64,000 nucleotides of DNA from an uncultured Gammaproteobacteria bacterium (GTDB taxonomy: Bacteria; Patescibacteriota; Patescibacteriia; UBA9934; GWF2-40-263), in the NCBI GenBank assembly GCA_964402425.1, contig CAYOCD010000001.1, forward strand, positions 82,934-146,933. The letters are read 5' to 3'. The translations under genes and the position numbers were made by a program. The notes under the pieces were generated by a model. It ran no database searches. It was not told the DNA's origin and worked only from the letters and a program-made list of their open reading frames with translations. Positions 18,414-60,569 of the stretch are shown piece after piece. Position 1 is the first letter of the stretch. Every line of letters begins with the position of its first letter.

Positions 18414-18478
18414 TTAAAAAATGAAAAATCCCTCAGTTTCTTGCGAAACCAAGGGACGAGTTGAGGGGTCCAGGGCTG

Positions 18479-39930: not shown

Positions 39931-40407
39931 ATGAGCGATTTGAACCCCCAAGAAATGAGCGTGGAACAGCTGCGCTCCAAAATCCTGGAGCGGACAGCCG
40001 CGAACAAAGATGATCAAGAAAAGCGCAAACAGCGCGGTCGCGAAATTCACGAATTATCCAAGGCTCTTGCTGCCAAGACAGCGATTGGCTACATTGTCAT
40101 CACAACATCATCGATGCCAGACGTTTTGTTGTCTGCCTCCCCAGAAACAACAACCTTTCATGAGTGGATCTCCTTCCGTGCATTGAGCGGAGACCCTCCC
40201 CTCATCGAAATGCAACTCATCACCAATCGCGATGAGAAAATCACCTTTCGCCTTGCACTAGGCGACACAATCCGTTTCCAACACGAATACAACAGTTCGA
40301 AAAACGGCGGAACACCATCTGTTCATGATTACACCGTCAAAACGTTCAAGACAGAAAACGAACTTCTTGGATGGGCCTACAGGAAACATGTTTGTCTACC
40401 AACCTGA
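39931..40407 (+). CDS. Hypothetical cytoplasmic protein (158 aa), encoded between ftsA and ftsZ on the opposite strand.
   Basis: Strong RBS. Followed by two hairpins with T-runs (40410-40440 and 40450-40480). No recognisable motifs. Confidence 0.5.
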   Translation: MSDLNPQEMSVEQLRSKILERTAANKDDQEKRKQRGREIHELSKALAAKTAIGYIVITTSSMPDVLLSASPETTTFHEWISFRALSGDPPLIEMQLITNRDEKITFRLALGDTIRFQHEYNSSKNGGTPSVHDYTVKTFKTENELLGWAYRKHVCLPT

Positions 40408-40480
40408 CACCCCTTTTGGGCGGGTGTCTTTTTCTTTTATCAGAAAACACGTGACCGATCGGTCGCGTGTTTTTATTTTT

Positions 40481-40528
40481 ATTCCTTTCAGACCTTTCCG
40501 CTCCTTCCGCCTTCTCCGCCCTTCCCCT
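40481..40528. repeat. Solo arm C of the GGCGGAA-type GA-rich element (CCTTTCCGCTCCTTCCGCCTTCTCCGCCCTTCCCC) abutting the ftsA stop codon.
   Basis: Seen in sequence. Confidence 0.6.
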
Positions 40529-41786
40529 ACGGTTTCAACTGTTTCAGCATTTTCATGAATCCACTTCCGACTTTTTCTAATCCGCCGATCTTTGACATGA
40601 TTTGTCCAAGACCTTTTGTGTTTGTAACACCCCTCATGTGTTTCCCCCAAAGAACAAGTCCGATAGCTGTTGTCATGCCGGGGTCATTGATGCGATCAAT
40701 CACAGACGAAACACCAATTGGCGTTCCAAGTGAGATAGGCAAACGGAGAGTCGCCTTCCCTGCCTCTAACATACCAACAAGTTTTGCGCCACCACCCGTA
40801 AGAATAATACCGGCTGGCAACATTCCTGAGCGATCAATTTTTTGAAGTTCGCGATCAACAAGTTCGAAGATCTCTGATACGCGCGCTTCCGTAATATCGG
40901 CGACAAATCTTCGGCCTACCCATTCTTCTTCTGGACTTCCGAGTTCTGCAAGGTTGATATCATCTTTTTTTCCGACTTCTTCTGGAAGACAGGTGGCATA
41001 ACGAAGTTTCATTTGTTCCGCAACATCAATAGAAGTTCTAAGTCCAATCGCAATGTCTGACGTAATATGATCAGACCCGATTGGCAACACGGCTGTATGG
41101 AGAATATCTCCTTCTTCAAACACCACGAGACTGGTTGTTGATGCTCCAATATTCACAACACAAACCCCAAGTTCTTTTTGACGATCTGTAATAACAGCTT
41201 CTGCTGTTGCAAGAATGGAGAATACCAAATCTTCAATATCAAGACCGGTTCTGTAAACCGCCTTTGTCATGTTTTTAATTTGCGAGCCAAGTCCTTGAAT
41301 AATGAGAGCGTCCACCTCAAGACGAATACCGTTCATTCCGACAGGATCCTTAATTCCCCGCTGGCCATCTACAATGAAGCTTTTTGGAATGACGTGAATG
41401 ATTTCATAATTGGTTGGCGTAGCGACCGTTCTTGCGGCTTCAATGGAGCGCTCGACGTCTTCTTCCCGAATCTCACCATCAGACCTTCCGACACCAATAA
41501 CCCCTCTGGATTCCTGCGAGATGATGTGACTTCCACTAATCCCCACCCAAGCTTTGTTCAAAGGCAATCCTGTAATGCGTTCCGCTTGTTCAAGTGCACG
41601 CGAAACAGAAGACACCGCATCTTCCAAATTGGTGATGGTGCCTTTGTTGATACCAGCAGATGGGACTTCCACTGCCCCAACGATATGAATTTGTTCTTTT
41701 CCGTCCGCGGATGGAACAATTTTTCCAACAGCAACACGCACGGCACAAGAACCAATATCGAGACCAGTGAATACTTCTTCAGACAT
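40527..41786 (-). CDS. ftsA: Cell division protein FtsA (actin-like ATPase).
   Basis: FTGLDIGSCAVRVAVGKI...HIVGAVEVPSAGINKGTITNLEDAVSSVSRALEQAE... . The C-terminal amphipathic tail is ...GLEKVGSGFMKMLKQLKP. Confidence 0.85.
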   Translation of the reverse strand: MSEEVFTGLDIGSCAVRVAVGKIVPSADGKEQIHIVGAVEVPSAGINKGTITNLEDAVSSVSRALEQAERITGLPLNKAWVGISGSHIISQESRGVIGVGRSDGEIREEDVERSIEAARTVATPTNYEIIHVIPKSFIVDGQRGIKDPVGMNGIRLEVDALIIQGLGSQIKNMTKAVYRTGLDIEDLVFSILATAEAVITDRQKELGVCVVNIGASTTSLVVFEEGDILHTAVLPIGSDHITSDIAIGLRTSIDVAEQMKLRYATCLPEEVGKKDDINLAELGSPEEEWVGRRFVADITEARVSEIFELVDRELQKIDRSGMLPAGIILTGGGAKLVGMLEAGKATLRLPISLGTPIGVSSVIDRINDPGMTTAIGLVLWGKHMRGVTNTKGLGQIMSKIGGLEKVGSGFMKMLKQLKP

Positions 41787-41857: not shown

Positions 41858-42226
41858 TCATGAAAACAACAAACGGAGATAGGGATAAAAAATCAGAACC
41901 CCAATAATAAAGGCAAACAACGACATAAGGAGTACTGCTGCGGCCATCATGTCTTTGGCTTCCTTTACAATTGGATGCAAACGAGGTTTGAACGCGTCCA
42001 GAACTCGTTCAAAAATACTGTTGATCAGCTCCAAAACAAGAACAGATGCAATCAAAAGTAAAAGAACGATATATTCCGAATTGGAAACTCTAAATCCGAT
42101 TGCAAACACAAGAACACCTACAGCCATGACAATTTGCAAACGAAAACTTTGCTCAGACCGAAAAACGGTCAAAAGGCCGTTTGTTGCATACCCGAAACTT
42201 TTTTTTAGCTGTTTCCAAAGAATCAT
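41858..42226 (-). CDS. dgkA: Diacylglycerol/undecaprenol kinase (DgkA family).
   Basis: Three TM, 122 aa. Motifs GYATNGL..VFRSEQSFR and ELINSIFERVLD...HPIVKEAKDMMAAAVL. Confidence 0.75.
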   Translation of the reverse strand: MILWKQLKKSFGYATNGLLTVFRSEQSFRLQIVMAVGVLVFAIGFRVSNSEYIVLLLLIASVLVLELINSIFERVLDAFKPRLHPIVKEAKDMMAAAVLLMSLFAFIIGVLIFYPYLRLLFS

Positions 42227-42660
42227 ATTCTGGGATCAACTCCAAGTTTCAGTAAAATTTTTGTTTGGAGTGGAAACATTTTTTTTGCATCAAATTCTTG
42301 TTCGTGGTCGAACCCGAAAACATGCAAAAGTCCGTGCACGATAAGGAACGTAAGCTCGTCACGCACGGAATGTTTCATTTCTTTTGCTTGTCGCTTGGCC
42401 TGCTCGTAACTCAACAAAATTTCTCCAAAATAATCTTCGTTATCAAGGGTAAAGGATAAAACATCTGTAACAGAATTTTTTCCTCGATGTTGCAAATTCA
42501 ACTTTTTCATTTCTTTTTCGGAAATAAATGCAATGGAAACGTTGTGTTTGCGCTTAAGTTTAAGGGCTTTTGAAACCTCCTCATCAATCTGAATAAGGCG
42601 CGTTTCTGGAAACCGCATCCCTCCTTTCAATCGCTGTTGATTCAGATCAATTTGGATCAT
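42223..42660 (-). CDS. ybeY: rRNA maturation endoribonuclease YbeY.
   Basis: Zinc-binding H-x3-H-x5-H motif FLIVHGLLHVFGFDHE. 4-nt overlaps with both neighbours. Confidence 0.8.
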   Translation of the reverse strand: MIQIDLNQQRLKGGMRFPETRLIQIDEEVSKALKLKRKHNVSIAFISEKEMKKLNLQHRGKNSVTDVLSFTLDNEDYFGEILLSYEQAKRQAKEMKHSVRDELTFLIVHGLLHVFGFDHEQEFDAKKMFPLQTKILLKLGVDPRI

Positions 42661-43652
42661 AATTTTTCCACACTATTCACCATCATTTGAACCGTTTGGA
42701 GATAATCAATGGTGGCTTTTGTTGAGGTGTCGTAAATAAGCGTCACAACTTGGCTTCCAAGATCAATATATGAACTCAACTGGTTTTTTGCGACAAGCAT
42801 TGGATATCCTTTTTTGCTTTTTGAAGCAGAGGGAGTTCCGTCTGTGACATTTTGCTGATACCAATCAACAAGGGTCAATGATGCATCTTTTGCTACAACC
42901 TGCACAGTCATATTTTCCCCCGTATTCGTTGTGATAACAGATCCTATCCCCACCTCCAAAGGTGCAGAAACCCATTTTGCAGGATACAACAACTGAAATC
43001 CATCTACCTGAAGCATTTGTGCGAGCCCTGCTAAAACTAACGTGCCCGGAGCTGTTCCGTTCGGGTTATACCCGTGATAAACCTCATTCCCATCCAAAAA
43101 TCCATCACTGTCAGAATCAGGTAAATTTGGATTTGTGGAGTAGACAATCGTCTCTTCCCCATCTGTTAATCCATCAGAGTCTGTGTCAACTCCCGGAGTT
43201 GCCGCTGGTGGAAATGGATTTGTAGATATCTCTGTACTTGGGGGTGTTGTAACAGGCGGTGTTGTTTGTGTGACGTCAGGCGTCTCTTTAGGTGTTTCTG
43301 TTACAATTGGTTGCTCTAAAATCACAGCTTCATTATTTTTTTGAACACTTCGGAAAAAGAGATATCCTCCGATCATAAGTGCCACAAGAACAATGAATCC
43401 CGCAATCAATAAACCTTTTTTGGTATGTGTTGGTTGATTCATTTGAGCTGCCACTGGAATTGGTGGAAGTGTTTTTGGTGGAGCAGGAGGCTGAACAACT
43501 GTAACAGGAGTTACAGCAACCTTTTGAGGTTCAACCATGTTTACAACAGCCCCATGACGATAGCGTGCCGGCATCGCAAATACACGCACCGGATCAGAGA
43601 TGCTTTCATTTGGAGGTTGCATAATCATCGATTGTGTATGTGCGTCCGCCAT
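42657..43652 (-). CDS. Single-pass membrane protein with C-terminal Asp-rich Ca-binding-like repeats (DTDSDG..DGEE..NPN.PDSDSDGFLDGNEV..GYNPNG; TSP3/dockerin-like) and an extracellular beta-rich domain.
   Basis: TM GLLIAGFIVLVALMIGGYLFF. Thr/Pro-rich linker. Paralogous C-terminus shared with the next two genes. Confidence 0.55.
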   Translation of the reverse strand: MADAHTQSMIMQPPNESISDPVRVFAMPARYRHGAVVNMVEPQKVAVTPVTVVQPPAPPKTLPPIPVAAQMNQPTHTKKGLLIAGFIVLVALMIGGYLFFRSVQKNNEAVILEQPIVTETPKETPDVTQTTPPVTTPPSTEISTNPFPPAATPGVDTDSDGLTDGEETIVYSTNPNLPDSDSDGFLDGNEVYHGYNPNGTAPGTLVLAGLAQMLQVDGFQLLYPAKWVSAPLEVGIGSVITTNTGENMTVQVVAKDASLTLVDWYQQNVTDGTPSASKSKKGYPMLVAKNQLSSYIDLGSQVVTLIYDTSTKATIDYLQTVQMMVNSVEKL

Positions 43653-43666
43653 ATGTTTTACGATTC

Positions 43667-44299
43667 CTATTTTTTTGGAATTTGAAGGAGTTGACCTGGC
43701 CCGCTTGGGTTATATCCTTTTTTAACCTCGTCACCATCTTTGTAGGTATCGCCATCTGTGTCTGGATTCAATGGGTTGGTTTGATAAACATCTACTTCTT
43801 CTTTATCAAAGAGTCCATCTGCATCTGTGTCTGGACTATTTGGATCTGTTCCCAAAAGAGCTTCACGTGCGTCCGGCAATCCGTCTTTGTCTGTATCTGC
43901 CGTTTGATCTTCTGCAGGAACTTGCACAGCCTCTTCCAAAGGAGCTGGTGTTGGCGTTGGTGTTTCAATCTCTGATGTTTCTAGTGACTCAGATGTAACA
44001 ACAGGAGCCGGTGGAGTCACAGGTGTACGAGAATTCAAAATTCTCATGGAGAGAAAAAACGCGAGTCCGACAACAGCGACAATCGCCACAAACAGAACGA
44101 TGAGCTTCCAAGGAAACGCTCGTTTCTCCCCCATTTCCGATCCCATCTCCATGCTTTTCATGGATGGCGGTTGAGGAGTTGCCATTGGTGCAAGAGAAGA
44201 TTCTGATTGCACACTCATGGTTGGAGGATTCATTTGAGGGGCGGTCGCATCGGTCTGAGCAAAAACATCTTCAGGTTCCTTTTGGAGTTCGTCGAACAT
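43667..44299 (-). CDS. Single-pass membrane protein with DxDxDG Ca-binding-like repeats (paralog 2).
   Basis: TM WKLIVLFVAIVAVVGLAFFL. DTDKDGLPDAREALLGTDPNSPDTDADGLFDKEEVDVYQTNPLNPDTDGDTYKDGDEVKKGYNPSG. Confidence 0.55.
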   Translation of the reverse strand: MFDELQKEPEDVFAQTDATAPQMNPPTMSVQSESSLAPMATPQPPSMKSMEMGSEMGEKRAFPWKLIVLFVAIVAVVGLAFFLSMRILNSRTPVTPPAPVVTSESLETSEIETPTPTPAPLEEAVQVPAEDQTADTDKDGLPDAREALLGTDPNSPDTDADGLFDKEEVDVYQTNPLNPDTDGDTYKDGDEVKKGYNPSGPGQLLQIPKK

Positions 44300-44354
44300 A
44301 TGTGGGGGAAAGTAGTAAGTAGAGAGAAGAAAGTAGAAAGGGGGAAAATGGAAA

Positions 44355-45158
44355 TTACTTCTTTAAAGGATCATACCCAGCATTTATCTCTTGTCCATCA
44401 AGAAAGGAATCGCCGTCTGTATCTGGATTGCGTGGATTTGTTCCATACAGAACGATTTCTTGTGTTGAGTCAATACCATCAAGATCCGGATCATTCACCA
44501 AAACTTGCGCTCGACATTCTGCAGAACGTTTTGGATCAAGTACGGCACAAACTTCCGCATCTTGTACTTGATTTGCTGCCGCAAGAACACGAACAAAGAA
44601 ACAATCTCCCTCATTATTCTCGCAAACCTGTGTTGTTGCAGATGCAATGACCTGCTTACAACTTATTTTCATTTGTCCATCCACTATTTTATCACACAAT
44701 GCCGTATCTGACGCAGTAATCGCCTTCAACACATTCAATTCATTCACACATCCTGACAACCAATCTTTATTTGCTATTTTTTCACAAATCGAAACATCTT
44801 CATTTACACGTGCCACACTCCAAAAACAATCATCTTTGTCTTCTTCTGTCAGAACATCACAGCTTTCTGATTTTTTTTCCGTGATCGCACGTTCTTTTGT
44901 TTTCAACACCTTACACGCCTCAGAATCTTCCGACACTTCACAAGACGCTTCTGCCGAAACAGATGTTGTGACTTGCTCCGATATTGTCCCAAAGACGCTC
45001 GCTGCTCCTGTCGCTTGCGTTGCTTGAGGAGTACGGTCACGAATGACATAAAGGACCCCTCCAATGATTCCCAGAGCCAAAACAACCCCGCCCGCAATGA
45101 TCGCGATCAGTTTCCAGGGGGTTTGTTTTGACTCGGATGGTTGGTCACCAAAATCCAT
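44355..45158 (-). CDS. Single-pass membrane protein with a Cys-rich ectodomain and C-terminal DxDxDG repeats (paralog 3).
   Basis: TM WKLIAIIAGGVVLALGIIGGVLYVI. About 14 Cys. C-terminus DPDLDGIDSTQEIVLYGTNPRNPDTDGDSFLDGQEINAGYDPLKK. Confidence 0.55.
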   Translation of the reverse strand: MDFGDQPSESKQTPWKLIAIIAGGVVLALGIIGGVLYVIRDRTPQATQATGAASVFGTISEQVTTSVSAEASCEVSEDSEACKVLKTKERAITEKKSESCDVLTEEDKDDCFWSVARVNEDVSICEKIANKDWLSGCVNELNVLKAITASDTALCDKIVDGQMKISCKQVIASATTQVCENNEGDCFFVRVLAAANQVQDAEVCAVLDPKRSAECRAQVLVNDPDLDGIDSTQEIVLYGTNPRNPDTDGDSFLDGQEINAGYDPLKK

Positions 45159-45162: not shown

Positions 45163-48100
45163 TTAATTTACGGGACAATAGGTGAATTCAATATTACTCA
45201 GAGTGACAGATGCACTTGTTGGATTCAATTTAACATTAATTGGAAGAGAAAATGGAGCATCCTGACAGATAAACTTGCTTGGAAGTGGCAACTTCAATCC
45301 GTTTCCGATCTCAAGCAAAGAAGTTCCTGTTTGTGGAAGTGTATATTTTCCATTTGCATCTTTAAATGTTGCTGCAATTAACGACACGGTATTTCCAGCA
45401 TTCAAAAGTGAACTTGATGAAGAAACATTTGCCGTAATTCCGACCCCAACTCGGCATGCTGGAAGCAACAAACTTGCACGATCTGGTGTTTTTCCTTCTG
45501 TATTTTCCAAACTAAATAAGGTGATACTGCTTGATGGTTGAGATTCGGCTACATTTCCTTGCACTTGAAGAGCAACTTTTTGGAATGCGGTCGGACAAGA
45601 ACTATTACAACTCGATGAACAAGTTGGCAGTACACATGTTCCTACACCTATACATTTTTCATTATTAGCCGTATTGCAATCACCGTTCCAGTTACAAGTA
45701 CTACCGGATGTTTCACAATATCCATCACAATTATTTTGATAAGCTGCGCATTTTTTTCCATTCTCCCCACGAAGAGAGCCTCCATTACAAGTACCCACAA
45801 TGCGACATGAATACCCCTTATCACAGGAAGTTCCGTGCCACGTTGATGTTGAACCATCATCTTTCTTCCCGTTAGCTGTGCCATCTGAGGTTAGTCCGAC
45901 ATCTTTTGAATCACACGGACCCTTTAGATCCATTTCATCCGCACTGATTGATTTTGTACATGTTCCATTTAACTTCGTACCATCACAATATTCGCCACCA
46001 TTGATTGCTCCATCTCCACAATACGGACCAGATTGTGTTTTGTACTGACAGTATTGATTACAGAAGTTACAGCTTGATCCGTACGCCGCATTACAAGCGA
46101 TTCCGTTTGCCTTACCGCTGTCACACGACTCGATTCCAACGTTTACAAAGTTATCGCCACACACGTTTGTCTTACAGGCGTTTGTACAACTGTCATTGCT
46201 GGAACTGTTTCCGTCATCGCATTCTTCTGTTCCTTCTTTCTTTCCATTACCACATTGTTGTGGACCACCAGCACACGCACCCCATCCACCACCGGCAAGA
46301 TTTGTGATCCACTGACAGCTGTTTGAAGATGGATTGTTGTAATTCTGACAGGTGCGTGTTCTGGTGAGGTCATATTGTTCTGCTGAACATTTTCCACCTG
46401 CCCCACAAGAAGCATCATCTGTACAAATCGCACCAATTGTTGTTCCGGCGGTACAAATCTTTGCTTTTGCACAAGCCGCAACAGGACATCCAGATGAAGC
46501 CGTACATTTTGTTCCATCGTTATTCAATGCACCAGCATACGTTTCTGTATTTCCATCGCATTTTTCTGATGAATCATTAATCAAATTGTCCCCGCACATT
46601 GGTCCTGGAGCTTTACACTCTGCAGTACAATTTTTTCCATCTTTGTCGTAATTTCCGTTATAGGTTGCACAATGATTACCGGACTTTGCCCAACTTGTTC
46701 CCGCAAGTGTCGACCAATTTGATGGCGTTCCGCAATCACATTGTTCATTCCCCGCGAGGTACCCGTCACCACACGCAAAATTAGAAACAACTTTACAATC
46801 TTTACCACAGTGGCCGTACGTACCATTCAGCGCAGTACCATCATCACAGACTTCACCAAGCGCTTTATCAATCACACCATCTCCACAAGAAAATGGCTTA
46901 CATGTTCCACCGGCTTTTTTTGCAGCATCCTCAGCGGCTGCATCTGTTGCATAATTTTTACAATCATTTTTACAAGTAACATTGATGAACCCTGCGTTGT
47001 TTGCGCAAGCAATCGATTTGACTTCACCAATTTCACAATCTTCACCCACACCCTTTACTCCATCACCACAAATCGTAGAGCTTCCAAAAACAGTTGCGTT
47101 GCAATAAGCGGAAGTTGAGACAAATCCTGGCAGGAGATTTGCAGGAGCTTTCCCGTTTAGATAAGCCGCTTTAATGGTCGCTTGATCACCAGATGCGTCT
47201 ATTTTATTGTTCCACGCAACCGTACTGTATTCCAATTCTGTTGTGAGGACATATGCTTCCCCACCAAAATTTTGATATCCGTACACATGAGAACCGTTTG
47301 GACAAAGAGATTTTCCTTGTGCGCTATTCCAACACGTTGCGGAATCATATCCTTCACCTACATTTTTACACTGTCCCCAGAATTGGTTGAGCGGATCTGT
47401 TGGCAGAGCACCCCCAACCTCATTTCCAAGCGTACTGTTCCAAGATGGCCAGATACTGTTACTTACAGAAGGAACAAACGTTCCTGCTTGAATAGTTGGA
47501 TAGCTCGGGATACATGTTTCTGTTCCTGGACAAGCAGAATTCGCTCCTGTACCCGCTTTACTGTTTTGAGAAACAACACAGGCTTGACTCTTGGTTACCG
47601 CACAACGACCGTTTGTGTTTCCGTATTTTTCAAATGTGGTCACCATCTCTGTGACATCTGTCAATCGTTTTGTGTCTCTGATCAATTTTTGTTTGTCTGC
47701 ATCACAGAACATGTTTGGATCAGCTACTGCACATTCCGCATTTCCTAATTTTGGATTACAAACTTTATCCGAAACGGAACATTTTCCATCTGGCTTACAT
47801 TGATCCAAACAGTCTCCATCCCATGAACATGTGGTAAACGGACCACTTGGTGGAACATAGGCACTTCCACTCTTACAAAGACCAACGTGCGACACTCCAG
47901 TTACACCAGTATCATTCGCGTTTAATCGGAAATTTTGTAAGACAAGATCAAAAATCTGTTGCGCATCTTTTCCGGCATCTGCGTTAAATGAGATAACGTA
48001 AATATTTGAATAGAGATTTGATCCGTTGCGATTTGCCGCTGCTGCATAAATCGTTGTTCCTGTTTGCACAGCTTCATATCCATCCAACTTGGCCGCCTTT

Positions 48101-51100
48101 GGTATTCCAGTAAATCCCTGTGATTTAAACCAAGCCATTGGTGACAGATAATTTGGATTTGAGAGAACACGCACTCCAATAGAGTCTTTTGTTCCAGAAA
48201 CGCGGAACACTAATTCTTTCAAGACATCTGTTGTAATGAGTTGATTTACATCTGGTGTTGCATCTGTTGGAGGAAGTTCAAGAGCAGGCAGCTTCTTTCC
48301 TTCTTCTGGTTTTCCAACATCTCGACAATAGAATAAGGAGAAGTTTGTGTTCGCTCCATTTTCAACAAATGGAACCCCGTGTGCCAAATCCGGCCATGGA
48401 TTTTCACACAAGAACGCAACCTCTGACACATGACCAGATACAGCCGAACCAACCGTTGATTTTGCACTTATTGTATCTGCAGAGATTGTTGCGGTTGCAA
48501 TAACATTTCCTGAACCGTTCTTTCCAAGGGCTTTATATTGCGCTGTTTGTGCGATGCTTGGTCCAACAATTCCTAAAATATCCATTTTAGTTGCCGTATC
48601 TTTCACGTTTGCAGCCCAGACCCACGTCCAAGCGTATACACCTGAAATTGAAGAGATTTCTTCAAGTGTTCCTGTGTTTTTGCGATAAGAAAACGGCTTT
48701 GTTGTAAATGCGTGGACTTCATTTGTCTTAGAATAATATCCGGGGCTCTTTGAGAGATACGAAGGTGGAGTTGGGGTGATTCCACCATCTGTTGTTTCCA
48801 CAACGTCAAGCAAACAAACATCCGCACCGGTTGTGAAAGTACTTGAGAGAGAAACAACGGAGCAAGTTGTGCCATTGTCACCAAGACAAACACTGACCTT
48901 GTTTTTACTAAGAACTCCCTTTGACGTTTCTCCGTTTTTTGTTTTTACCGTCAATTTATATTGCGCATTTGGAAGTAATTGTTCTGTGTAACGAAGATAA
49001 ACTTGATGTGTACCTGGGTCTTGTTCAAACGAAACAGGAACAAAACATTGCGTGGTTGCATTTGCCATGGCAGATTGCCCAAAAGCATCTTTAACCCAAT
49101 TCCAAACAAAAGAGAAAATATTTTTTGCACGCATGAATCCAACAGGCTTTGGATAATACGGACAGTTAACTGCTGTTACAGCCTCATTGATACCTAAACT
49201 ATTTTTCTTCGTAATCAGCTCAAGCTGAAGATTTGGATCTGTTTCTGCCGCACTTAATTTTCCATCTCCGTCAGTATCTACGGAACCAAACGTACTCGCA
49301 TCCATTTCTTGATCAAACGCAATGGAAATAGCCGTATTGCGACAAATGTTTGTTGCATTATTTCCAGGAACCATCGCTGTAATCGTTGGGCGCTCAAAAC
49401 AACACTTTTCCACACCGCAACCAAGCGATTTTGAAGATTCCCCTGTTTTTGTTCCACACTGATTATCGGAAGCACAGGAACAAAGCAATTTCACTTCGCC
49501 TGTACCTGTCTTTCCTCCAACGGAGACCTGTACATTTGAAACAGCATATCCGTATGTTGCTTTTTTCTCATCTTTTTCTACCTCAAGCGACGCTCCACTT
49601 GAAACTTCTGCAACACCATAAGCACCAACGGTATATGTTGCGGAAGCAGCTGCTTCACACTGCTCGCCCGGTTCAAGAGCTCCCCCATTTCCACAAACAG
49701 AAGGGATAGCATAATTTGGATTTGAACCCATCTTTAAACAACTCTTTGAACATCCAGGAGCGATAGATCCAACACCAAGATCACATCCTGCATCTTCCCC
49801 GGAATCTGTAACACCGTTTCCACAGACAAATTTTGCTGGATCTTTTCCAGGACTTGTTCCGCGATTCAAACAAAGATCTGTACAAGCCACTGTGGTACGA
49901 ACCTCACATTTTGAACCATCCTGACACGCTGCACCACCAATGGTACAGACAGCCCCATCCGCACAATGCGTTCCTGGATCACATGTCTCTCCAACACTAG
50001 CAATTCCATCTCCACAACGTGCATTTGAATACGCAACAACACCTCCTTCAAACAAACAATTTGAGGAACATCCATCTCCTTCTTTTATGTTTCCGTCATC
50101 ACAGGCTTCCCCACCATTTGTCTTTGAGTTATCAGCAACTCCGTCTCCACAAATAGATTTAATAGAGGAAACCCCTTCAAACAAACACTTTGCAGAACAT
50201 CCATCTCCACCCAAAACTTTTCCATCATCACATTGTTCACCCGCATCCACAACGTTATTTCCACACGTTGGAGCAACCGTTCCTTCTTTCAAACAACTTG
50301 ATGAACAGCCGTCTTTGTCATTTGTGTTTCCATCATCACAAGACTCCCCGTAATTTACTGCCCCATTTCCACAAACAGCTTGTCCGACTTTGATTGGGTT
50401 TCCTGTATACAAACAGTTTCCTCCACACATTTTTGGGAGTGTGTTTGTAAGAGCAAGCGAACCATTATTCAACAAAAACGCAGTGATCTCATTGTATTTA
50501 TGATCTGCTCCTATTACATACGATGCTGCACCGATCTTGTTTGGTGTATCTGTTGCACCCCATCCACCCCATCCACTTGCTTGCAAGGCTTGCCCTGTTA
50601 CAGAACATTCGTCCGGAGCTCCATATGCAATCGCGTTGTATTCTTGACGTTGACCAACATATTTAAGTATTGCCGACTTTGGAGAAAGCCCAACACGATC
50701 AACGGCACATGAGGTGAGCGAATCTTTTGACTTAAATTTCCAAGAAAACGCACCTGGATAAAATTTATTTTCAGGAGTTCCGTAATTAGATCCAGATTCT
50801 GAAAGAGATGAGGACACACTCGATTTAATCCAATCTGCGACAACAACTCGATACCACGTATTTGACACAAACGCAGCGCCATCTGTCACAATTGATGCTC
50901 GATATGTTGCAGAATCATATATGACACTCGTAACATGATTCCATGCGGTCAACTGACTCTTTTCACAAAGGGCATTTTCACATTGAAAAATACGAATTGC
51001 ACCCGCAATATTAAAGACAGCTGGATTCATTGGAACATTAAATGAAACCCACGGCTTCACGTTTGCACATGCGGCAGAACAGTTTGGAAAATAATCACTT

Positions 51101-54100
51101 ACTTTTGGTGTTGCAAGCGCGATGGTCAGAAGTCCTTTATTCGTTGGTTTATTTCCAACATCCGTAACCGTTGCACTAATTTCTGCAGGGATTCCAATAG
51201 GGGTGTTATAAAGAGGATTGACATTTACGGTACAAACACCGGCTGCAGGATTACTTGTTAATGTGTCACCCGGTAGGAATTTTGCTGCCTGTTGTGAAGA
51301 ACTCCAACTTACCGAATGTCCAGCACACGCAAGCACAACACACTTGTCTTTGTTTGAAAGTAATTGTGCAAGATATCCAACAGCATCTCCGGCATTTTTT
51401 GCCGTGAACGTTGCTGGAGAAACACTCACTCCACCAACACCACATGGCGCATTTGAGGAGGATGTTCTGAATTCCCAAGAATAATCTTTTGCCATGGAAG
51501 CACCCGAAACAAGTCCATTCACCTTAGATTTTACCCCACCCCCAGGAGCAGATGCCCCTTTGATGGTAACGCGATGCAAAGTACTTGTATCAAAATGATT
51601 ATTTGGAGACCATTGAAATGTATATTCACCTGGTGTCTGAAAAGAACCTGGCACCACTTGCCAATCTGCTGCTACACATGTTCCATTTACCTCTTTGGCT
51701 ATTGGACATTTTTCTATAACGATATTTGTGTTTCCGATACCGATCGTTGCAGGATCCATTGGAACCGCAAACGAAGCTGTCACTGCAGCTGAAACACAGA
51801 TATCATTTTGCGTACTCCAAAGTGGTGATGGGGATGGTGATGGCTTTGGAAATTTTGGATCCGCACAATTCACAACAACCGTTGGCGCAACAGGAATTGG
51901 GCTCGTTGAAACCTTGTAAACAAATTGAGAAAATTTCGGCCCATCGCTTGGACAGGCTTGGCCTACAAGTGAACACGAGCCATCTCCACAGCATGCCTGA
52001 CCAGCCGTACAGAGACTTGGAGTTTGCAGACAATTTCCAACCGCAAAATTTACCGAGTTTGATTGTTTCAGCGCAGCATCTACCACATAAACAGGACCTG
52101 ACTTTGTTCCAACAGGAACGCTCGCTGATCCGATTTCAGTTCCTGTCCAGGAACCAGGATCTTCGGAAAGATTTGTTGTAAACACAACCGCTCCTTTTTG
52201 ATCTCCAAAATTTTCTCCAAAAATATCAATCGATGTTCCGGCAGGACCCGCGTTTTTGCTTAAAAGACAAATTCCTGGTGTTGGTTTTCCATCCACAACG
52301 GTAAATGGTTTTGCATCAGAAGCATTTCCGGTCTGAGGCACAACACTCACTTCATAATTACCAGGTTTGATAGGACTCTTATCTAGATTAAATGGAACTT
52401 TTACCGTAACCGAATTAGTGTGCCAAAAAAGATCTCCACAAGCTTTTGGGAACTCTACATTTCCGTTTATAACCTCATTTGAAGTAAGATTTTTAAATTT
52501 AACGTATCCTGTAGATGACCCAAAATTGGATCCATAAATGGTTACATATTGTCCAGAAGGACCCCATGCTGACTGCGATTTACAAGAACCAGCTACGCCA
52601 CCACAATCCTTATCCGTAGAACAATATTGATTTGCTATCGCTCCTCCATTACAGACTTTCCAACCTGTATCAATTGTAGCGATCGTTGCTTTTTCTACAT
52701 TTGGTGTGTTTGTTGCAACAAATTTCTTTGTATTAGAACCAACGCGAACATCCATACATGTTCCACCCGCAGCTCCACAAGCCGTATTATCCTGACAATA
52801 TTGAAGCGTCTCAGAACACCAGGACATTCCACACTTATATGCTGCATCTACTTTTGTACAATCCGCATTTGAAAAACAAGAAAGCGCTGGACTCACTTTT
52901 GCCCCACTCGCATTCAAACAGAAATAATCACCTGTAAAAACTTGGGCATTATACGTTCCGCTTGCAACTCCTGGTACATTTCCTTTCAATTCCGTCGCTC
53001 CCCACAAAGAAGGCGTCAACTGAAAATTTGAAAGATAAACAGAAGACGAACCTTGTCCAGCACCAAACGCAAGACCAGTCAGAGTAATTAACGTATTCAC
53101 TTCCGCAGCTGGTGTAATCGAACACAAACCAGGGCGCTTAATTGCGTTTACATCAAATTTAGATATGACGGGTCCAACAGCATCATCAGTTCTTTCTGAC
53201 TGTGCTGCTGCCCCCAGAGCACCTGCTGGAATATTGATTTTTAACGGACCATCAATAGCACCAGCCGGTACTTTCACAACAATTTCCTTTTCTTTCCAAG
53301 AAGAAGTTCCGCCACACTGGAATGCGTTTGCCACTTTTGTCGTTCCATCTTTTTCTGCTCCAAGAAATTCAACCGTACCGGGCGTTGTCCCAAATCCAGA
53401 ACCTGTAATCGTGATTAAGTTTTCTACAGCACCATTGTCTGGAGAGATAGATTGAATAACAGGGACATCCTGACATCTTCCTGCAATACAAAACCCAGAA
53501 GAACATTGTGCATTACTCGTACACGCAGACGGCTTACAGAGCCCGCAAAAATATTCGCTTGTTGCGTCTCCACCACAATCACACGCATCACCAACTGCAC
53601 ATGTTCCCGTTTCTCCATACGGAGCACTTGCATCTTGCGTGCCATTGTCACAGTTTGGCGCACGAAGCATGACAGAAACTTTTCTGGAAATTTGTGTAGA
53701 TCCCGCACAATCAGTAGCCATTGCCCAAACGGCATATGACTTATTTGCAACAAATCCAACCGGAGTCCATTCTCCATTAAAAAATGCTGTTGTGAGTCCA
53801 TTTAATGCCGTAGGATTCACCGCAATAGAAGATGTATCAACAGAAGTTTCTCCGTCTGCAGCAAAAAATTCAACACTGGCCACTCCTGTATCATCAACCG
53901 TTCTTACTTGAAGTGGTTTGCTTAATCCCAAAATAGCTTTTGCTCCAGCTTGTGGTTCTACAAACGAAACTTCTTGAGGTGGTTTTGTGTCCACAACAGA
54001 GCCTGTTGTGAAATCAAACGAACAAGGATTCACTCCCCCCTCCGTCTTACAAGTAAGCGTTGCACCGCTTGCTGATTTAACTTGTGCAGGATCTACCTCA

Positions 54101-54816
54101 ACATGAAATGCGGCGTTTGGTGCAAAACAAGACAAAGATTCATTTGGAGTCGGACATTTTTCTTCTGGCGTGAACATGACTTTTCTGCCAGAAAACGTAA
54201 AAGACCCGGGAACATCCACCCCGTCTCTTGTGATCTTTATTCCCTTTTCATCTTTCACGGATTTTGAAAAAACAAGGGATAATTTAAGGTTACGAACACC
54301 CGCAGCACATTGGATAATGGACGTTGGCGGATTTAATGAGAATACAGGAGTTGGTGACGGAAACGGTGAAGTTTTTAAACAAGATAGATCTGTAGGATTT
54401 TTTTTACAAAACGCAATAATATCTGCATTCGATGTTGCTCCCACCAACTTTGAAATGACGAATTGTGCAATCGCAAACGATGACAAAACAATCACAAGAC
54501 CGATTAAACCGTTTTTAATGGAGTTCTTTGCTTTTTTGAGACGATCTTCGTTTCCACCCGCCGTCATGTACATGAATCCTCCGTACAGAACAATCATGAC
54601 CGCAATAATTCCAAGAAACGAAATGACTGTGCGAATCAAACGCGCAATAATGACGGTAATGGAAGGCCCTGTTGAAAACCCCGCGTTGGCCGCAAAAGAA
54701 GCAAACGCATCTGGATCTACAGGACTTGCAGCGAGGATTGGTTGAGCAAAAAAGATTCCCGTGCAAAGGAGAACGGTTAGAATAAACATCGATTGAAGCA
54801 ATCTGCGGAGGTTCAT
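45163..54816 (-). CDS. Giant (3217 aa) cysteine-rich cell-surface protein. N-terminal signal peptide plus two-helix membrane hairpin domain, SbsA-type Ig-like / beta-rich regions, and at least 10 Myxococcus-type cysteine-rich repeats (CGNGxxxxGExCDDGNxxxGDGCSxxC).
   Basis: Single uninterrupted ORF. N-terminus MNLRRLLQSMFILTVLLCTGIFFAQPILAAS...IIARLIRTVISFLGIIAVMIVLYGGFMYMTAGGNEDRLKKAKNSIKNGLIGLVIVLSSFAIAQFVI. Repeats such as CGNGAVNYGESCDDGNTNDKDGCSSSCLKEG, CGNNVVDAGEQCDDGKVLGGDGCSAKCLFEG and CGDGAINGGEYCDG. Confidence 0.7.
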   Translation of the reverse strand: MNLRRLLQSMFILTVLLCTGIFFAQPILAASPVDPDAFASFAANAGFSTGPSITVIIARLIRTVISFLGIIAVMIVLYGGFMYMTAGGNEDRLKKAKNSIKNGLIGLVIVLSSFAIAQFVISKLVGATSNADIIAFCKKNPTDLSCLKTSPFPSPTPVFSLNPPTSIIQCAAGVRNLKLSLVFSKSVKDEKGIKITRDGVDVPGSFTFSGRKVMFTPEEKCPTPNESLSCFAPNAAFHVEVDPAQVKSASGATLTCKTEGGVNPCSFDFTTGSVVDTKPPQEVSFVEPQAGAKAILGLSKPLQVRTVDDTGVASVEFFAADGETSVDTSSIAVNPTALNGLTTAFFNGEWTPVGFVANKSYAVWAMATDCAGSTQISRKVSVMLRAPNCDNGTQDASAPYGETGTCAVGDACDCGGDATSEYFCGLCKPSACTSNAQCSSGFCIAGRCQDVPVIQSISPDNGAVENLITITGSGFGTTPGTVEFLGAEKDGTTKVANAFQCGGTSSWKEKEIVVKVPAGAIDGPLKINIPAGALGAAAQSERTDDAVGPVISKFDVNAIKRPGLCSITPAAEVNTLITLTGLAFGAGQGSSSVYLSNFQLTPSLWGATELKGNVPGVASGTYNAQVFTGDYFCLNASGAKVSPALSCFSNADCTKVDAAYKCGMSWCSETLQYCQDNTACGAAGGTCMDVRVGSNTKKFVATNTPNVEKATIATIDTGWKVCNGGAIANQYCSTDKDCGGVAGSCKSQSAWGPSGQYVTIYGSNFGSSTGYVKFKNLTSNEVINGNVEFPKACGDLFWHTNSVTVKVPFNLDKSPIKPGNYEVSVVPQTGNASDAKPFTVVDGKPTPGICLLSKNAGPAGTSIDIFGENFGDQKGAVVFTTNLSEDPGSWTGTEIGSASVPVGTKSGPVYVVDAALKQSNSVNFAVGNCLQTPSLCTAGQACCGDGSCSLVGQACPSDGPKFSQFVYKVSTSPIPVAPTVVVNCADPKFPKPSPSPSPLWSTQNDICVSAAVTASFAVPMDPATIGIGNTNIVIEKCPIAKEVNGTCVAADWQVVPGSFQTPGEYTFQWSPNNHFDTSTLHRVTIKGASAPGGGVKSKVNGLVSGASMAKDYSWEFRTSSSNAPCGVGGVSVSPATFTAKNAGDAVGYLAQLLSNKDKCVVLACAGHSVSWSSSQQAAKFLPGDTLTSNPAAGVCTVNVNPLYNTPIGIPAEISATVTDVGNKPTNKGLLTIALATPKVSDYFPNCSAACANVKPWVSFNVPMNPAVFNIAGAIRIFQCENALCEKSQLTAWNHVTSVIYDSATYRASIVTDGAAFVSNTWYRVVVADWIKSSVSSSLSESGSNYGTPENKFYPGAFSWKFKSKDSLTSCAVDRVGLSPKSAILKYVGQRQEYNAIAYGAPDECSVTGQALQASGWGGWGATDTPNKIGAASYVIGADHKYNEITAFLLNNGSLALTNTLPKMCGGNCLYTGNPIKVGQAVCGNGAVNYGESCDDGNTNDKDGCSSSCLKEGTVAPTCGNNVVDAGEQCDDGKVLGGDGCSAKCLFEGVSSIKSICGDGVADNSKTNGGEACDDGNIKEGDGCSSNCLFEGGVVAYSNARCGDGIASVGETCDPGTHCADGAVCTIGGAACQDGSKCEVRTTVACTDLCLNRGTSPGKDPAKFVCGNGVTDSGEDAGCDLGVGSIAPGCSKSCLKMGSNPNYAIPSVCGNGGALEPGEQCEAAASATYTVGAYGVAEVSSGASLEVEKDEKKATYGYAVSNVQVSVGGKTGTGEVKLLCSCASDNQCGTKTGESSKSLGCGVEKCCFERPTITAMVPGNNATNICRNTAISIAFDQEMDASTFGSVDTDGDGKLSAAETDPNLQLELITKKNSLGINEAVTAVNCPYYPKPVGFMRAKNIFSFVWNWVKDAFGQSAMANATTQCFVPVSFEQDPGTHQVYLRYTEQLLPNAQYKLTVKTKNGETSKGVLSKNKVSVCLGDNGTTCSVVSLSSTFTTGADVCLLDVVETTDGGITPTPPSYLSKSPGYYSKTNEVHAFTTKPFSYRKNTGTLEEISSISGVYAWTWVWAANVKDTATKMDILGIVGPSIAQTAQYKALGKNGSGNVIATATISADTISAKSTVGSAVSGHVSEVAFLCENPWPDLAHGVPFVENGANTNFSLFYCRDVGKPEEGKKLPALELPPTDATPDVNQLITTDVLKELVFRVSGTKDSIGVRVLSNPNYLSPMAWFKSQGFTGIPKAAKLDGYEAVQTGTTIYAAAANRNGSNLYSNIYVISFNADAGKDAQQIFDLVLQNFRLNANDTGVTGVSHVGLCKSGSAYVPPSGPFTTCSWDGDCLDQCKPDGKCSVSDKVCNPKLGNAECAVADPNMFCDADKQKLIRDTKRLTDVTEMVTTFEKYGNTNGRCAVTKSQACVVSQNSKAGTGANSACPGTETCIPSYPTIQAGTFVPSVSNSIWPSWNSTLGNEVGGALPTDPLNQFWGQCKNVGEGYDSATCWNSAQGKSLCPNGSHVYGYQNFGGEAYVLTTELEYSTVAWNNKIDASGDQATIKAAYLNGKAPANLLPGFVSTSAYCNATVFGSSTICGDGVKGVGEDCEIGEVKSIACANNAGFINVTCKNDCKNYATDAAAEDAAKKAGGTCKPFSCGDGVIDKALGEVCDDGTALNGTYGHCGKDCKVVSNFACGDGYLAGNEQCDCGTPSNWSTLAGTSWAKSGNHCATYNGNYDKDGKNCTAECKAPGPMCGDNLINDSSEKCDGNTETYAGALNNDGTKCTASSGCPVAACAKAKICTAGTTIGAICTDDASCGAGGKCSAEQYDLTRTRTCQNYNNPSSNSCQWITNLAGGGWGACAGGPQQCGNGKKEGTEECDDGNSSSNDSCTNACKTNVCGDNFVNVGIESCDSGKANGIACNAAYGSSCNFCNQYCQYKTQSGPYCGDGAINGGEYCDGTKLNGTCTKSISADEMDLKGPCDSKDVGLTSDGTANGKKDDGSTSTWHGTSCDKGYSCRIVGTCNGGSLRGENGKKCAAYQNNCDGYCETSGSTCNWNGDCNTANNEKCIGVGTCVLPTCSSSCNSSCPTAFQKVALQVQGNVAESQPSSSITLFSLENTEGKTPDRASLLLPACRVGVGITANVSSSSSLLNAGNTVSLIAATFKDANGKYTLPQTGTSLLEIGNGLKLPLPSKFICQDAPFSLPINVKLNPTSASVTLSNIEFTYCPVN

Positions 54817-54826: not shown

Positions 54827-56737
54827 TTACGGTGCGATCACAGGATAGGGACACGCGGGACTTGAAACTGAGCTCGATGGTTCTCCGTTACAGCAATAAG
54901 GCTTCGTTTCATCTGTTCCGTTACAATTTTTTGCTGAACTTGCGGCTGTTGCCGCTGACGGGAACATACAAATCTGATACACACTTTTGACATCTTGTGT
55001 GACAGATGGCCAATAAGATGACCCACCTTCTGCATTTGAAATAAACGCTGGATGAGAAATATGTACGACGGATTTAGTTGGGATATCTGTTTTAAGCGCA
55101 TTCGGAAGATCTGTTTTTGATACCGAGTACCACATGGGATATTTTGGATCCGGCAACAAAGAGATGTTTGTTGCATTGACTGTTGAGGCTTTGAGCAACG
55201 TATTAAACGAAAGTGTAACATCTGCCGATACATCAATGTTTCCTTCAAGGATATCTGGTGCAAGCGCTTCAATTTTTGGAACCGTGTCATTAATGATGTT
55301 TGTTGTCTTAAAACTCCATGCGTAATCATCATTTGCTTGCGTTCCGGAACACGCAACACTATCTTTTGAACTTCCGCATGCTTTACCATCATTATTTCCG
55401 TCTAACGAATTTCCTGCGGCATCCACAACTCCATCATAACTTACCCCAGTCAAAACACCTTGTGGGACGTTTGTAGGATCAATACTTGCTGCTTTAGCCG
55501 TAACGGTTATTTGTTTTCCTCCTGGCAAACAATAAATCTTTCCACCACACGGATCTTTTCCACAATCATCTGTTGTTGTGAAACTCACTGTTTTATATCC
55601 GTTACTGATATCATAAGTACCGTTTATTGGGTTTGCTCCACCATCACTTGATGCGATACGCTGAAATGCCTTTAGCTCTCCCCCTCCCGCAAGATATGTT
55701 CCTGATACAGCGATCGGATCCATTGGTTCATTAAATGTCAGTTCTATGGAAATGTTTCGTGCAAATTCTGAAAGTGATTGACCTTCTTGTAAAGGCTTCA
55801 CGGATGGAATGACAGAAATAATCGTTGGTGGTGTTAAATCAACATTGGTTGAAACGGTGAAATTCCATCCATATCCTGCCGAATTCACACCGGTAAATGC
55901 AGCACCACCCGCTTGTTTTTCAATACTTGGTTTAAGAGCAACGGTAAAAGATGCATTTGTTTGAGGATTTCCAAGATATGTAACTGGCTTGAACACAAAT
56001 GTCTTGAAATCCTCACTCACAGTTACCACAACTTTATCACTCGCAAGTTTTGTTGTTTCACCTTTTGCTGTCTCAAAAATGGAGACGGCGTTTGTTTTTA
56101 ACTTTGTGCTACACAAAGGAACGGTTTGATTAGCTGCAACTGTATACGTACAAGGTGATTTGTAGCCATCAATAATGGTCTCAGGTTTAATTGGCTCTTT
56201 GAAGGTAACAAAGATTTTTGTGTTACGTGGAACATCTGAAGCGTTTCTGACAGGAAAATGACTTTCAAGAATACCCGCCCCAAGTGAACCCGCAAGCGGC
56301 TCTGTATATTTTTTTGCAACAGACACAATCGAGCCTGGGCCATAAGCAGCATTAAGCAATTTTCCAAGAATCCATGAAGCGATGGAATAGGAAGAAAGAA
56401 TAATGACAAGACCGATGACTGCGTTTGAAATGATCTTTTTTGCTTTTGCAACTTTTGCCAAATCTCCGGAAGCGGTCATGTACATGAACCCGGCAGAAAT
56501 AACCAAAAGAACCATCACAATTCCAAGAACCCCAAGAACTGCCCGAATGATGCGCGCAATGAAAATAGGCAAGCTTGTTTGTGGGAGTCCTGCTCCCTCA
56601 CCCAAAGACTGAAGAGCATCCGCTGCAAATACCCCGTGCGGAATCAAAAAAGATCCGATGACAACAAAGAACAGCACACCAAAAAAAGCTACTCTGTAAG
56701 CCGGAAGTTTATTTGTAAGACGGAAAAATCGCTTCAT
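54827..56737 (-). CDS. 636-aa surface protein with the same N-terminal two-helix hairpin domain as the giant protein, followed by Ig-like (SbsA_Ig-type) domains and a Cys-containing C-terminus.
   Basis: N-terminus ...FIARIIRAVLGVLGIVMVLLVISAGFMYMTASGDLAKVAKAKKIISNAVIGLVIILSSYSIASWIL. Ig-like signature TPPTIISVIP...ISIELTFNEPMDPIAV. 10-nt gap to the giant gene. Confidence 0.65.
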   Translation of the reverse strand: MKRFFRLTNKLPAYRVAFFGVLFFVVIGSFLIPHGVFAADALQSLGEGAGLPQTSLPIFIARIIRAVLGVLGIVMVLLVISAGFMYMTASGDLAKVAKAKKIISNAVIGLVIILSSYSIASWILGKLLNAAYGPGSIVSVAKKYTEPLAGSLGAGILESHFPVRNASDVPRNTKIFVTFKEPIKPETIIDGYKSPCTYTVAANQTVPLCSTKLKTNAVSIFETAKGETTKLASDKVVVTVSEDFKTFVFKPVTYLGNPQTNASFTVALKPSIEKQAGGAAFTGVNSAGYGWNFTVSTNVDLTPPTIISVIPSVKPLQEGQSLSEFARNISIELTFNEPMDPIAVSGTYLAGGGELKAFQRIASSDGGANPINGTYDISNGYKTVSFTTTDDCGKDPCGGKIYCLPGGKQITVTAKAASIDPTNVPQGVLTGVSYDGVVDAAGNSLDGNNDGKACGSSKDSVACSGTQANDDYAWSFKTTNIINDTVPKIEALAPDILEGNIDVSADVTLSFNTLLKASTVNATNISLLPDPKYPMWYSVSKTDLPNALKTDIPTKSVVHISHPAFISNAEGGSSYWPSVTQDVKSVYQICMFPSAATAASSAKNCNGTDETKPYCCNGEPSSSVSSPACPYPVIAP

Positions 56738-56809: not shown

Positions 56810-56946
56810 GAGTAAGGCTATAAAGGCAATAGAGGCTTGAGATGCCGAAGGGAACAAAAAAAAGAACGCGGTCAACGCGTTCTTTATTTTCTTGTTTCTT
56901 TTTTTCGGCATCTCAAGCCTCTCCAGCATCTCTCGCCTCTCTAGCT
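56810..56946. repeat. GA-rich palindromic element H: 16-bp perfect inverted repeat GAGGCTTGAGATGCCG/CGGCATCTCAAGCCTC plus CTCTCGCCTCTC arm. Loop carries the hairpin GAACGCGGTCAACGCGTTC. Abuts the stop of the yqeY-fusion gene.
   Basis: Seen in sequence between 56737 and 56941. Confidence 0.7.
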
Positions 56947-59642: not shown

Positions 59643-59645
59643 ACG

Positions 59646-60568: not shown

Positions 60569-60569
60569 A

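Follow-up and report, generated by a model that had tools for sequence, protein, structure and literature searches.

Three tandem membrane proteins with bacterial thrombospondin type 3 repeats are encoded beside a giant surface protein in Candidatus Uhrbacteria

We analysed a stretch of 64,000 nucleotides (nt) of Patescibacteria DNA (hereafter the window; positions 82,934 to 146,933 of contig CAYOCD010000001.1, GenBank assembly GCA_964402425.1), in which three tandem genes, here called p3, p2 and p1, lie directly downstream of a gene for a giant protein of 3217 amino acids (aa). The three genes encode paralogous membrane proteins with bacterial thrombospondin type 3 (TSP3) repeats, and they stayed beside the giant gene at every informative locus. 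We put the probability at roughly one half that p1, p2 and p3 are membrane-anchored accessory subunits of a giant surface protein complex and act in a Ca2+-dependent manner. We regard the finding as a well-conserved version, specific to this lineage, of Ca-binding repeat surface proteins that are already known; its domain combinations are new, and its genomic link to the giant is robust.

The initial annotation of the window had described three closely spaced same-strand open reading frames (ORFs) directly downstream of the giant gene, and our coordinates agreed with it (Table 1). The order on the minus strand was giant, p3, p2, p1, ybeY, dagK, ftsA. The stop codon of the giant gene (TAA) was followed by 4 nt (acgt) and the ATG of p3. 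A spacer of 55 nt, almost all pyrimidine (C/T) on the coding strand, separated p3 from p2 (window positions 44300–44354), the gap between p2 and p1 was 14 nt, and the end of p1 overlapped the start of ybeY by 4 nt (ATGA). Copies identical to these genes were present in several metagenomes.

The same annotation had suggested that the three proteins are partners of the giant and that co-occurrence across genomes could bear this out. A profile of the p1 family retrieved 80 GTDB species-representative loci. A giant orthologue lay directly upstream in all 63 loci that had upstream sequence, the other 17 being truncated by the contig. Median gaps in the species loci were 3 nt (giant–p3), 31 nt (p3–p2) and 10 nt (p2–p1), with a 4-nt overlap into ybeY. 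The commonest block comprised a Cys-type, a p2-type and a p1-type gene; some clades had variant blocks with two p1-types, or with two p2-types and then a p1-type. Because this forward set had been chosen by p1, a reverse test was needed, for which a giant-specific segment (residues 1951–2350; 10 giant sequences) retrieved 59 metagenome loci. TSP3 membrane proteins came next in 46 of the 50 loci with at least 1.5 kb of downstream sequence. None of the remaining four proved to be a giant without TSP3 genes: L094 was 100% identical to L092 and broke off abruptly inside the giant, as an assembly break, and the giants of L103, L111 and L137 were frameshifted and ran to the contig end or to TSP3 genes. 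Co-occurrence was thus found in both directions, in 63/63 forward loci and in all 46 interpretable reverse loci. Many of the species-representative metagenome-assembled genomes (L008–L087) are titled ‘uncultured Gammaproteobacteria bacterium’, a name at odds with the genes they carry; they seem to have been mislabelled in bulk.

The repeats consisted of DxDxD-type loops, seven in total: two in p1 (starting at residues 156 and 179), three in p2 (135, 157 and 180) and two in p3 (223 and 246), with a period of 22–23 residues. The loops were EF-hand-like, 12 residues long with Glu at position 12, and a short helix followed each of them in AlphaFold2 (AF2) models. Positions D1, D3, D5, D9 and E12 were present in six of the seven loops, fitting DxDxD[GST]xxDxxE. 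A count over all six frames of the 64-kb window gave 7 occurrences of the motif DxDxD[GST]xxDxx[ED], 6 of them within p1, p2 and p3. Composition-preserving shuffles reached the observed loop count in 0/20000 cases for p1, 0/20000 for p2 and 9/20000 for p3. Because shuffled proteins almost never reached these counts, we concluded that the observation was real and not due to chance. The single literal pattern that had been proposed for all three proteins did not survive closer reading: p1 has NLPD and not.NPD, T or S replaces G in the last loop of both p2 and p3, and p3 ends in GYDP.

The repeats had also been called TSP3- or dockerin-like, and a hidden Markov model (HMM) search separated the two terms. 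Against the bacterial TSP3 family TSP3_bac of Pfam (PF18884; gathering threshold 25 bits), p2 scored 48.3 bits (E=8.6e-13) over three repeats. When family members were scanned singly, 36 of 45 in the p1 family (best E 8e-09) and 23 of 23 in the p3 family (best E 3.6e-11) matched at E<=0.01, and the repeat homology was therefore significant for p2 itself and for p1 and p3 at the family level. In contrast, neither the eukaryotic TSP_3 family (PF02412) nor dockerin (PF00404) matched p1, p2 or p3 even at E<=1, and scanning the giant against Pfam at E<=1 returned no cohesin (PF00963). In the absence of dockerin and cohesin matches, ‘dockerin-like’ denotes only a resemblance of EF-hand-type loops with a helix after each.

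A true cohesin–dockerin system, in which the TSP3 modules would be dockerins received by cohesin-like modules of the giant, has in its favour the paired or triplet segments of 22–23 residues, each a 12-residue Ca loop and a short helix in the AF2 models, like the duplicated F-hand of dockerins. The type I dockerins of the cellulosome likewise consist of a duplicated ~22-residue Ca loop plus helix, and Ca-dependent docking to a large scaffold is what is proposed here. The missing HMM matches on both sides, the match of the repeats to TSP3_bac instead, the Glu at loop position 12 as in EF-hands, the presence of up to three repeats and the internal position of the p1 module make this explanation very improbable, and we do not count these proteins as members of that system. 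Eukaryotic thrombospondin/COMP type 3 repeats are likewise tandem extracellular calcium-binding loops (DxDxDGxxDxxD/E); there, 13 loops are wrapped as a ‘wire’, whereas here there are 2–3 repeats without flanking disulfide Cys. Indeed, the TSP3 modules contained no Cys, and p1 and p2 had none at all. Weak sequence matches linked p2 to the Ca-binding region of Staphylococcus aureus Bap and to C2 toxin component II; an OmpA-family protein was also among the weak matches.

The paralogy asserted in the initial annotation was upheld by pairwise BLASTP. Proteins p1 and p2 matched over ~220 residues that covered the tail, the transmembrane (TM) helix and the repeats (E=8e-17), and p1 matched p3 at E=5e-12. 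The match of p2 to p3 lay in the repeat module (E=2e-13), with a second segment in the ‘PWKLI’ juxtamembrane region and TM helix (E=2e-4). By these comparisons, the three proteins are related beyond the repeats. Each had exactly one strongly hydrophobic 19-residue window, in line with the single TM helix that had been claimed for each. The short N-terminus that had been described fits p3 (17 residues) and does not fit p1 (80) or p2 (65); in the same way, the repeat module is C-terminal in p2 and p3 but not in p1, where a further domain follows it. We infer a topology with the N-terminus inside and the C-terminus outside for all three, because they lack a signal peptide, the Cys pairs are conserved, and Ca-binding and PsbP-like domains are typically extracytoplasmic.

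Beyond the shared plan, the ectodomains differ. In p1, the 127 residues after the module were modelled by AF2 with a pLDDT (predicted local distance difference test) above 90 and matched solved structures of the PsbP/Mog1 fold, of the PsbP/LpqN/DcrB type. Sequence similarity to the extracytoplasmic proteins of this fold with which we compared it (cyanobacterial PsbP, BT_1490, LpqN and Apa of mycobacteria, DcrB, and Tsi3 and TplEi, which are immunity proteins of type VI secretion systems) was marginal. The score of p1 against Pfam PsbP (PF01789) was 14.3 bits, under the cut-off of 23.5 and hence outside the family, and only 2 of 45 p1 relatives matched that model at E<=0.01. The domain is rare (176 clusters out of 1.84 billion representatives) and in those clusters is nearly always C-terminal in proteins of 300–450 aa; its fusion with a TM helix and TSP3 repeats appears, from the sequences retrieved, to be confined to this lineage. 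Among the 355 p1 homologues, the named ones were Candidatus Uhrbacteria or Patescibacteria. On the predicted cytoplasmic side, p1 carries the motif FxMPxxYRHG, in which F25, M27, P28 and Y31 were invariant and R32 and G34 nearly so (45 sequences, 35–83% identity). The p1-type protein of one locus (L148, 14920-16128) had four Cys-rich repeats of the form ‘CGDGxCExxExxxxCPxDCGPPPP’ between the TM helix and the TSP3 module, and this insert suggests that ‘heads’ are shuffled among these paralogues.

Protein p3 has a Cys-rich helical domain of ~150 residues between its TM helix and its repeats, and 11 of the 12 Cys were invariant or nearly so across the family. Full-length p3 homologues were found only in Uhrbacteria-like genomes, those with names being Candidatus Uhrbacteria or Patescibacteria. 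The ectodomain of p2 consists of the stalk and three repeats, with no further domain. Its N-terminal peptide had the family consensus MFD...KEPEDIF..TD in 41 orthologues.

The giant and the gene upstream of it, g636, share an N-terminal anchor of the VirB2-like pilin type. The N-terminus of the giant scored 28.5 bits against T4SS_pilin (PF18895; cut-off 26.6). In both proteins the domain consists of a signal-like helix and two TM helices (at ~5–23, 52–70 and 102–120). At E<=1, the Pfam scan of the giant returned only TIG, Big_5, DUF4215, T4SS_pilin and a weak EF-hand_5. The giant was orthologous at ~33% identity along its whole visible length in 62 species loci, and on this comparison it is a conserved orthologue and not a hypervariable adhesin. 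Protein g636 scored 32.6 bits for T4SS_pilin and 49.9 bits for Big_5. The conserved module begins with g636, orthologues of which lay directly upstream of the giant in L092, L111, L137, L141 and L149. Of the scanned ORFs in the 64-kb window, none was identified as virB4 or as another type IV secretion system gene. Tandem VirB2-like genes have been described in genomes of the candidate phyla radiation (bioRxiv 10.1101/2025.01.22.634366); the words ‘thrombospondin’ and ‘giant’ have 0 occurrences in that paper, and TSP3 partners are unmentioned. Those Patescibacteria arrays have the same N-terminal domain as g636 and the giant. Unlike the small VirB2-like pilins, however, the pilin domain here anchors ectodomains of 636-aa and 3217-aa proteins. 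A search of the literature on TSP3 in Patescibacteria and on Uhrbacteria surface proteins found no description of this module.

These observations suggest the following arrangement. Proteins p3, p2 and p1 would be paralogous bitopic envelope proteins, with the N-terminus in the cytoplasm, one TM helix and the ectodomain outside. Each would combine a short TSP3 module predicted to bind Ca2+ and a flexible Pro/Thr-rich stalk with a different ‘head’: a disulfide-stapled solenoid resembling tetratricopeptide repeats (TPR) in p3, none in p2, and a PsbP/Mog1-like, putatively protein-binding domain in p1. They are encoded, and probably transcribed and translated, as one unit with the VirB2-like-anchored g636 and giant, and the five genes would make up a module that is inherited vertically and belongs to the core of both Candidatus Uhrbacteria and a sister Patescibacteria lineage. 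The likeliest role of the adaptors depends on Ca2+: they would organise the giant complex at the cell surface, stabilise it or tether it there, while the conserved cytoplasmic N-terminal peptides may link the complex to a cytoplasmic partner. Docking of the three proteins to the giant is suggested by the conserved adjacency of the genes.

How far adjacency can be trusted depends on the surrounding gene order. The region yqeY...giant...ybeY-dagK-ftsA-ftsZ-nrdR-htrA-pyk was syntenic in nearly all 80 species loci, and a p1-type gene lay directly upstream of ybeY in 73 of them. The three proteins could accordingly be generic lineage-specific envelope proteins, belonging to a Ca2+-stabilised wall, surface layer (S-layer) or matrix, with conserved gene order and no partnership behind their position next to the giant. 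With the whole region syntenic, conserved adjacency is not specific, and TSP3 membrane proteins do occur elsewhere without giants. One relative, the 268-aa protein P0147, had TSP3_bac repeats and a YkuD L,D-transpeptidase domain, which hints at an association with the cell wall and at a TSP3 module that can be attached to peptidoglycan-acting enzymes.

The most divergent locus retrieved, L149, bore directly on this question. Its p1-like protein, which matched the p1 profile with an hhalign probability of 99.4%, served as the query that uncovered a second large Patescibacteria family, with three further members on long contigs of 98–822 kb (L150, L151 and L152). The order in L149 was relA (opposite strand), a g636-like gene, the giant as two ORFs, a 110-aa TM protein, a TSP3 protein, the p1-like gene and clpP. 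Across L149–L152 it was a pilin-anchored large protein, a second large protein, a TM protein of ~105 aa, a TSP3 protein, in some a 64-aa TM protein, and the p1-like protein, beyond which came clpP on the opposite strand, then secDF and Wzy. Both ybeY and dagK were absent from these loci. Both flanks have changed (relA upstream in L149; clpP, secDF and Wzy downstream in all four), and the TSP3 genes still follow the giant genes directly and on the same strand. Because the TSP3 genes are kept beside the giant while the ybeY, dagK and ftsA context changes, we concluded that it is the giant genes with which they travel, and not ybeY, dagK or ftsA. The conserved gaps of 3–4 nt to the giant and the lack of any exception in 63 + 46 informative loci point the same way, and we regard generic envelope proteins with a purely positional link as unlikely, though deserving real weight.

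Several features of the sister lineage parallel those of Uhrbacteria. The p2 peptide had a counterpart, MFN(D/N)LN....VDDIFAETDK, and the p1 motif had one of the form h-x-MP or h-x-N-M-P, h-x-MP being found in the p1-like proteins and in TM proteins of 64–66 aa. The latter, whose genes lay between those for the TSP3 and p1-like proteins (L150 9797-9997, L151 9792-9986, L152 9785-9979), contained only a ‘...SLNLHTMPQT...’ motif and a TM helix; each resembles the p1 cytoplasmic motif and anchor copied as a protein of its own. The sister-lineage giant was encoded by two genes (~1900–2130 aa and 1000–1660 aa), both matching the Uhrbacteria giant, so that either the 3217-aa gene arose by fusion or the sister-lineage genes by splitting.

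Five points weigh against a role for p1, p2 and p3 as giant-associated subunits. First, in Uhrbacteria they are joined equally tightly to ybeY-dagK-ftsA, and operon membership alone does not single out the giant. Second, the break in synteny is partial, since ftsA and ftsZ still lie ~8 kb downstream in the sister lineage. Third, TSP3 membrane proteins occur in other Patescibacteria and in one proteobacterium with no giant neighbour, so that the module is generic; the TSP3-only matches P0140 (proteobacterium) and P0143 (a Parcubacteria genome) had unrelated gene neighbourhoods. Fourth, the giant has a membrane anchor of its own and no obvious need for a tether. Lastly, p1 (24.6 bits) and p3 (19.1 bits) scored slightly under the 25-bit cut-off of PF18884.

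The position upstream of ftsA raised the idea that the three are accessories of cell division or envelope growth, a lineage-specific analogue of the bitopic proteins FtsQ, FtsL and FtsB, with N-terminal peptides that bind FtsA. Peptides of PilN or FtsN bind PilM or FtsA. We give this reading little chance, because ybeY and dagK lie between p1 and ftsA, because p1, p2 and p3 had no Pfam matches to FtsQ, FtsL or FtsB, and because the sister lineage keeps the giant link with an opposite-strand clpP and ~8 kb before ftsA. The specific candidate of p1 as an FtsQ-like protein was rejected, as its C-terminal domain has a PsbP-like fold in place of POTRA and FtsQ beta domains. A bolder version of the giant-associated reading is that the five genes form an undescribed envelope-spanning organelle, a core trait of Uhrbacteria and the sister lineage, in which giant fibres with VirB2-like anchor domains would be clamped at their bases by three Ca2+-dependent bitopic adaptors whose cytoplasmic peptides couple to an actin-like (FtsA/PilM-type) or other machine; we consider it distinctly unlikely. 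A PilN-like gene, sought beside the pilM of the window for comparison of N-terminal motifs, was not evident, so the PilN/FtsN analogy is only an idea.

Among known systems, the closest functional analogue with experimental data is CglD of Myxococcus xanthus, which is not an orthologue. CglD, a gliding-motility adhesin, and MtsD, which acts in cell–cell cohesion, have the same 22–23-residue DxDxDG Ca-loop repeat as the proteins studied here. The NCBIfam models of both aligned locally to our repeats at ~20–30 bits, against cut-offs of 400–800, and these low scores indicate shared repeats only and not orthology. CglD is a cell-surface protein that acts as a Ca2+-dependent accessory of a larger surface adhesion machine (bioRxiv 10.1101/2023.10.19.562135). 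It is a 1130-aa outer-membrane lipoprotein of a diderm, with ~12 repeats and a von Willebrand factor A (VWA) domain, whereas p1, p2 and p3 are small bitopic Patescibacteria proteins with 2–3 repeats, different heads and conserved cytoplasmic tails.

Table 1. Features of the giant–p3–p2–p1 locus and its flanks, in window coordinates.
Feature	Position	Strand	Basis or remark
g636, 636 aa: N-terminal VirB2-like T4SS_pilin membrane anchor, Big_5 Ig-like domains	54827..56737	-	Pfam
giant, 3217 aa: VirB2-like N-terminal anchor, TIG, Big_5, DUF4215 Cys-rich repeats, 171 Cys	45163..54816	-	
p3, 267 aa: 17-residue N-tail, TM helix, linker, helical domain, two TSP3 loops	44355..45158	-	
p3 TM helix, residues 15-42	45033..45116	-	hydropathy (strong window 18-36) and AF2 helix 15-42
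p3 TPR-like alpha-solenoid (putative), residues 69-218	44505..44954	-	12 Cys, six pairs, 6-11 residues apart
p3 TSP3 module, residues 223-264	44367..44492	-	loops DPDLDGIDSTQE and DTDGDSFLDGQE
p2, 210 aa: conserved N-terminal peptide, TM helix, Pro/Thr/Glu-rich linker, three TSP3 loops	43667..44299	-	
p2 conserved N-terminal peptide, predicted cytoplasmic, MFDELQKEPEDVFAQTD	44249..44299	-	41 orthologues
p2 TM helix, residues 66-84	44048..44104	-	hydropathy; mean Kyte-Doolittle 3.04 over 19 residues
p2 TSP3 module, residues 135-198	43706..43897	-	loops DTDKDGLPDARE, DTDADGLFDKEE and DTDGDTYKDGDE
p1, 331 aa: N-terminal motif, TM helix, linker, two TSP3 loops, PsbP-like C-terminal domain	42657..43652	-	
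p1 motif FAMPARYRHG, residues 25-34, predicted cytoplasmic	43551..43580	-	45-sequence alignment
p1 TM helix, residues 77-105	43338..43424	-	hydropathy (strong window 81-99) and AF2 helix 77-105
p1 TSP3 module, residues 156-197	43062..43187	-	loops DTDSDGLTDGEE and DSDSDGFLDGNE, short helix after each
p1 C-terminal PsbP/Mog1-like alpha-beta domain, residues 205-331	42660..43040	-	
ybeY	42223-42660	-	
dagK	41858-42226	-	
ftsA	40527-41786	-	
Terminator-like hairpin, 10-bp stem, T-runs on both strands	56861..56885		yqeY–g636 interval; consensus match only
Terminator-like palindromic hairpin, 14 bp	40443..40474		directly after ftsA; consensus match only

Two terminator-like hairpins flank these genes (Table 1). 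From its sequence, the one upstream of g636 is the probable upstream boundary of the transcription unit, and the one after ftsA is, in this lineage, the probable downstream boundary of the unit g636-giant-p3-p2-p1-ybeY-dagK-ftsA; a unit of 16 kb that possibly runs from g636 to ftsA would lie between them. Of the sigma-70-like matches in the region, the best (TGGACA-16-TATGAT, 10/12; 44397..44370, minus strand) lay within the 3' end of p3 and may be an internal promoter for p2-p1-ybeY. Between ftsA and ftsZ, on the opposite strand, a 158-aa ORF without a Pfam match (39931-40407, plus strand) ended at the palindromic hairpin; the gene was also called in the near-identical metagenome contigs L001–L004, at 150–158 aa.

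Elsewhere in the window, positions 13987-22901 (minus strand) had a GC content of 0.52–0.59, versus ~0.42 elsewhere. An rRNA operon was rejected as the cause, as Rfam gave only a tmRNA and a tRNA. The stretch instead contained four ORFs in tandem (812, 542, 319 and 321 aa), densely packed with Cys/Asp-rich repeats of PF11617 ‘Cu-binding_MopE’, one of them also with a Somatomedin_B domain, and a 512-aa ORF without a Pfam match; it was flanked by Wzy_C and Wzz/GNVR genes. With these ORFs, the genome has another family of surface proteins encoded by tandem paralogues. The tmRNA gene was at 28698-29088 (minus strand; tag peptide AKNVMAMIKDAFRAPAFAPVFA) and tRNA-Asp at 34167-34244 (plus strand). 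A type IV pilus-like cluster lay just upstream of yqeY (58120-63407, minus strand). Besides PilM (58647-59642), it contained an N-methyl prepilin-type protein (58120-58650), a 945-aa protein with LVIVD and beta-propeller repeats, and two small ORFs whose N-termini resemble those of pilins.

Most Patescibacteria are uncultivated. Their lifestyle is thought to be one of attachment to other cells, yet next to nothing is known of the surface structures that would serve for it. If the link to the giant were merely positional, p1, p2 and p3 would be ordinary lineage-specific envelope proteins. If the organelle reading were true, attachment to a host would be positioned or regulated from within, through the cytoplasmic coupling of FxMPxxYRHG and EPEDIFxxTD. 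The bacterial TSP3 repeat family gains two new architectures from these proteins, TM-TSP3-PsbP-like and, with a putative solenoid, TM-Cys-stapled solenoid-TSP3, and their three ectodomains and two cytoplasmic peptides are small expressible targets for work on Ca binding, interaction and labelling in cryo-electron tomography. A giant protein that is conserved over its full length and always accompanied by the same membrane adaptors, predicted to bind Ca, is a strong candidate for a core surface structure of these bacteria.

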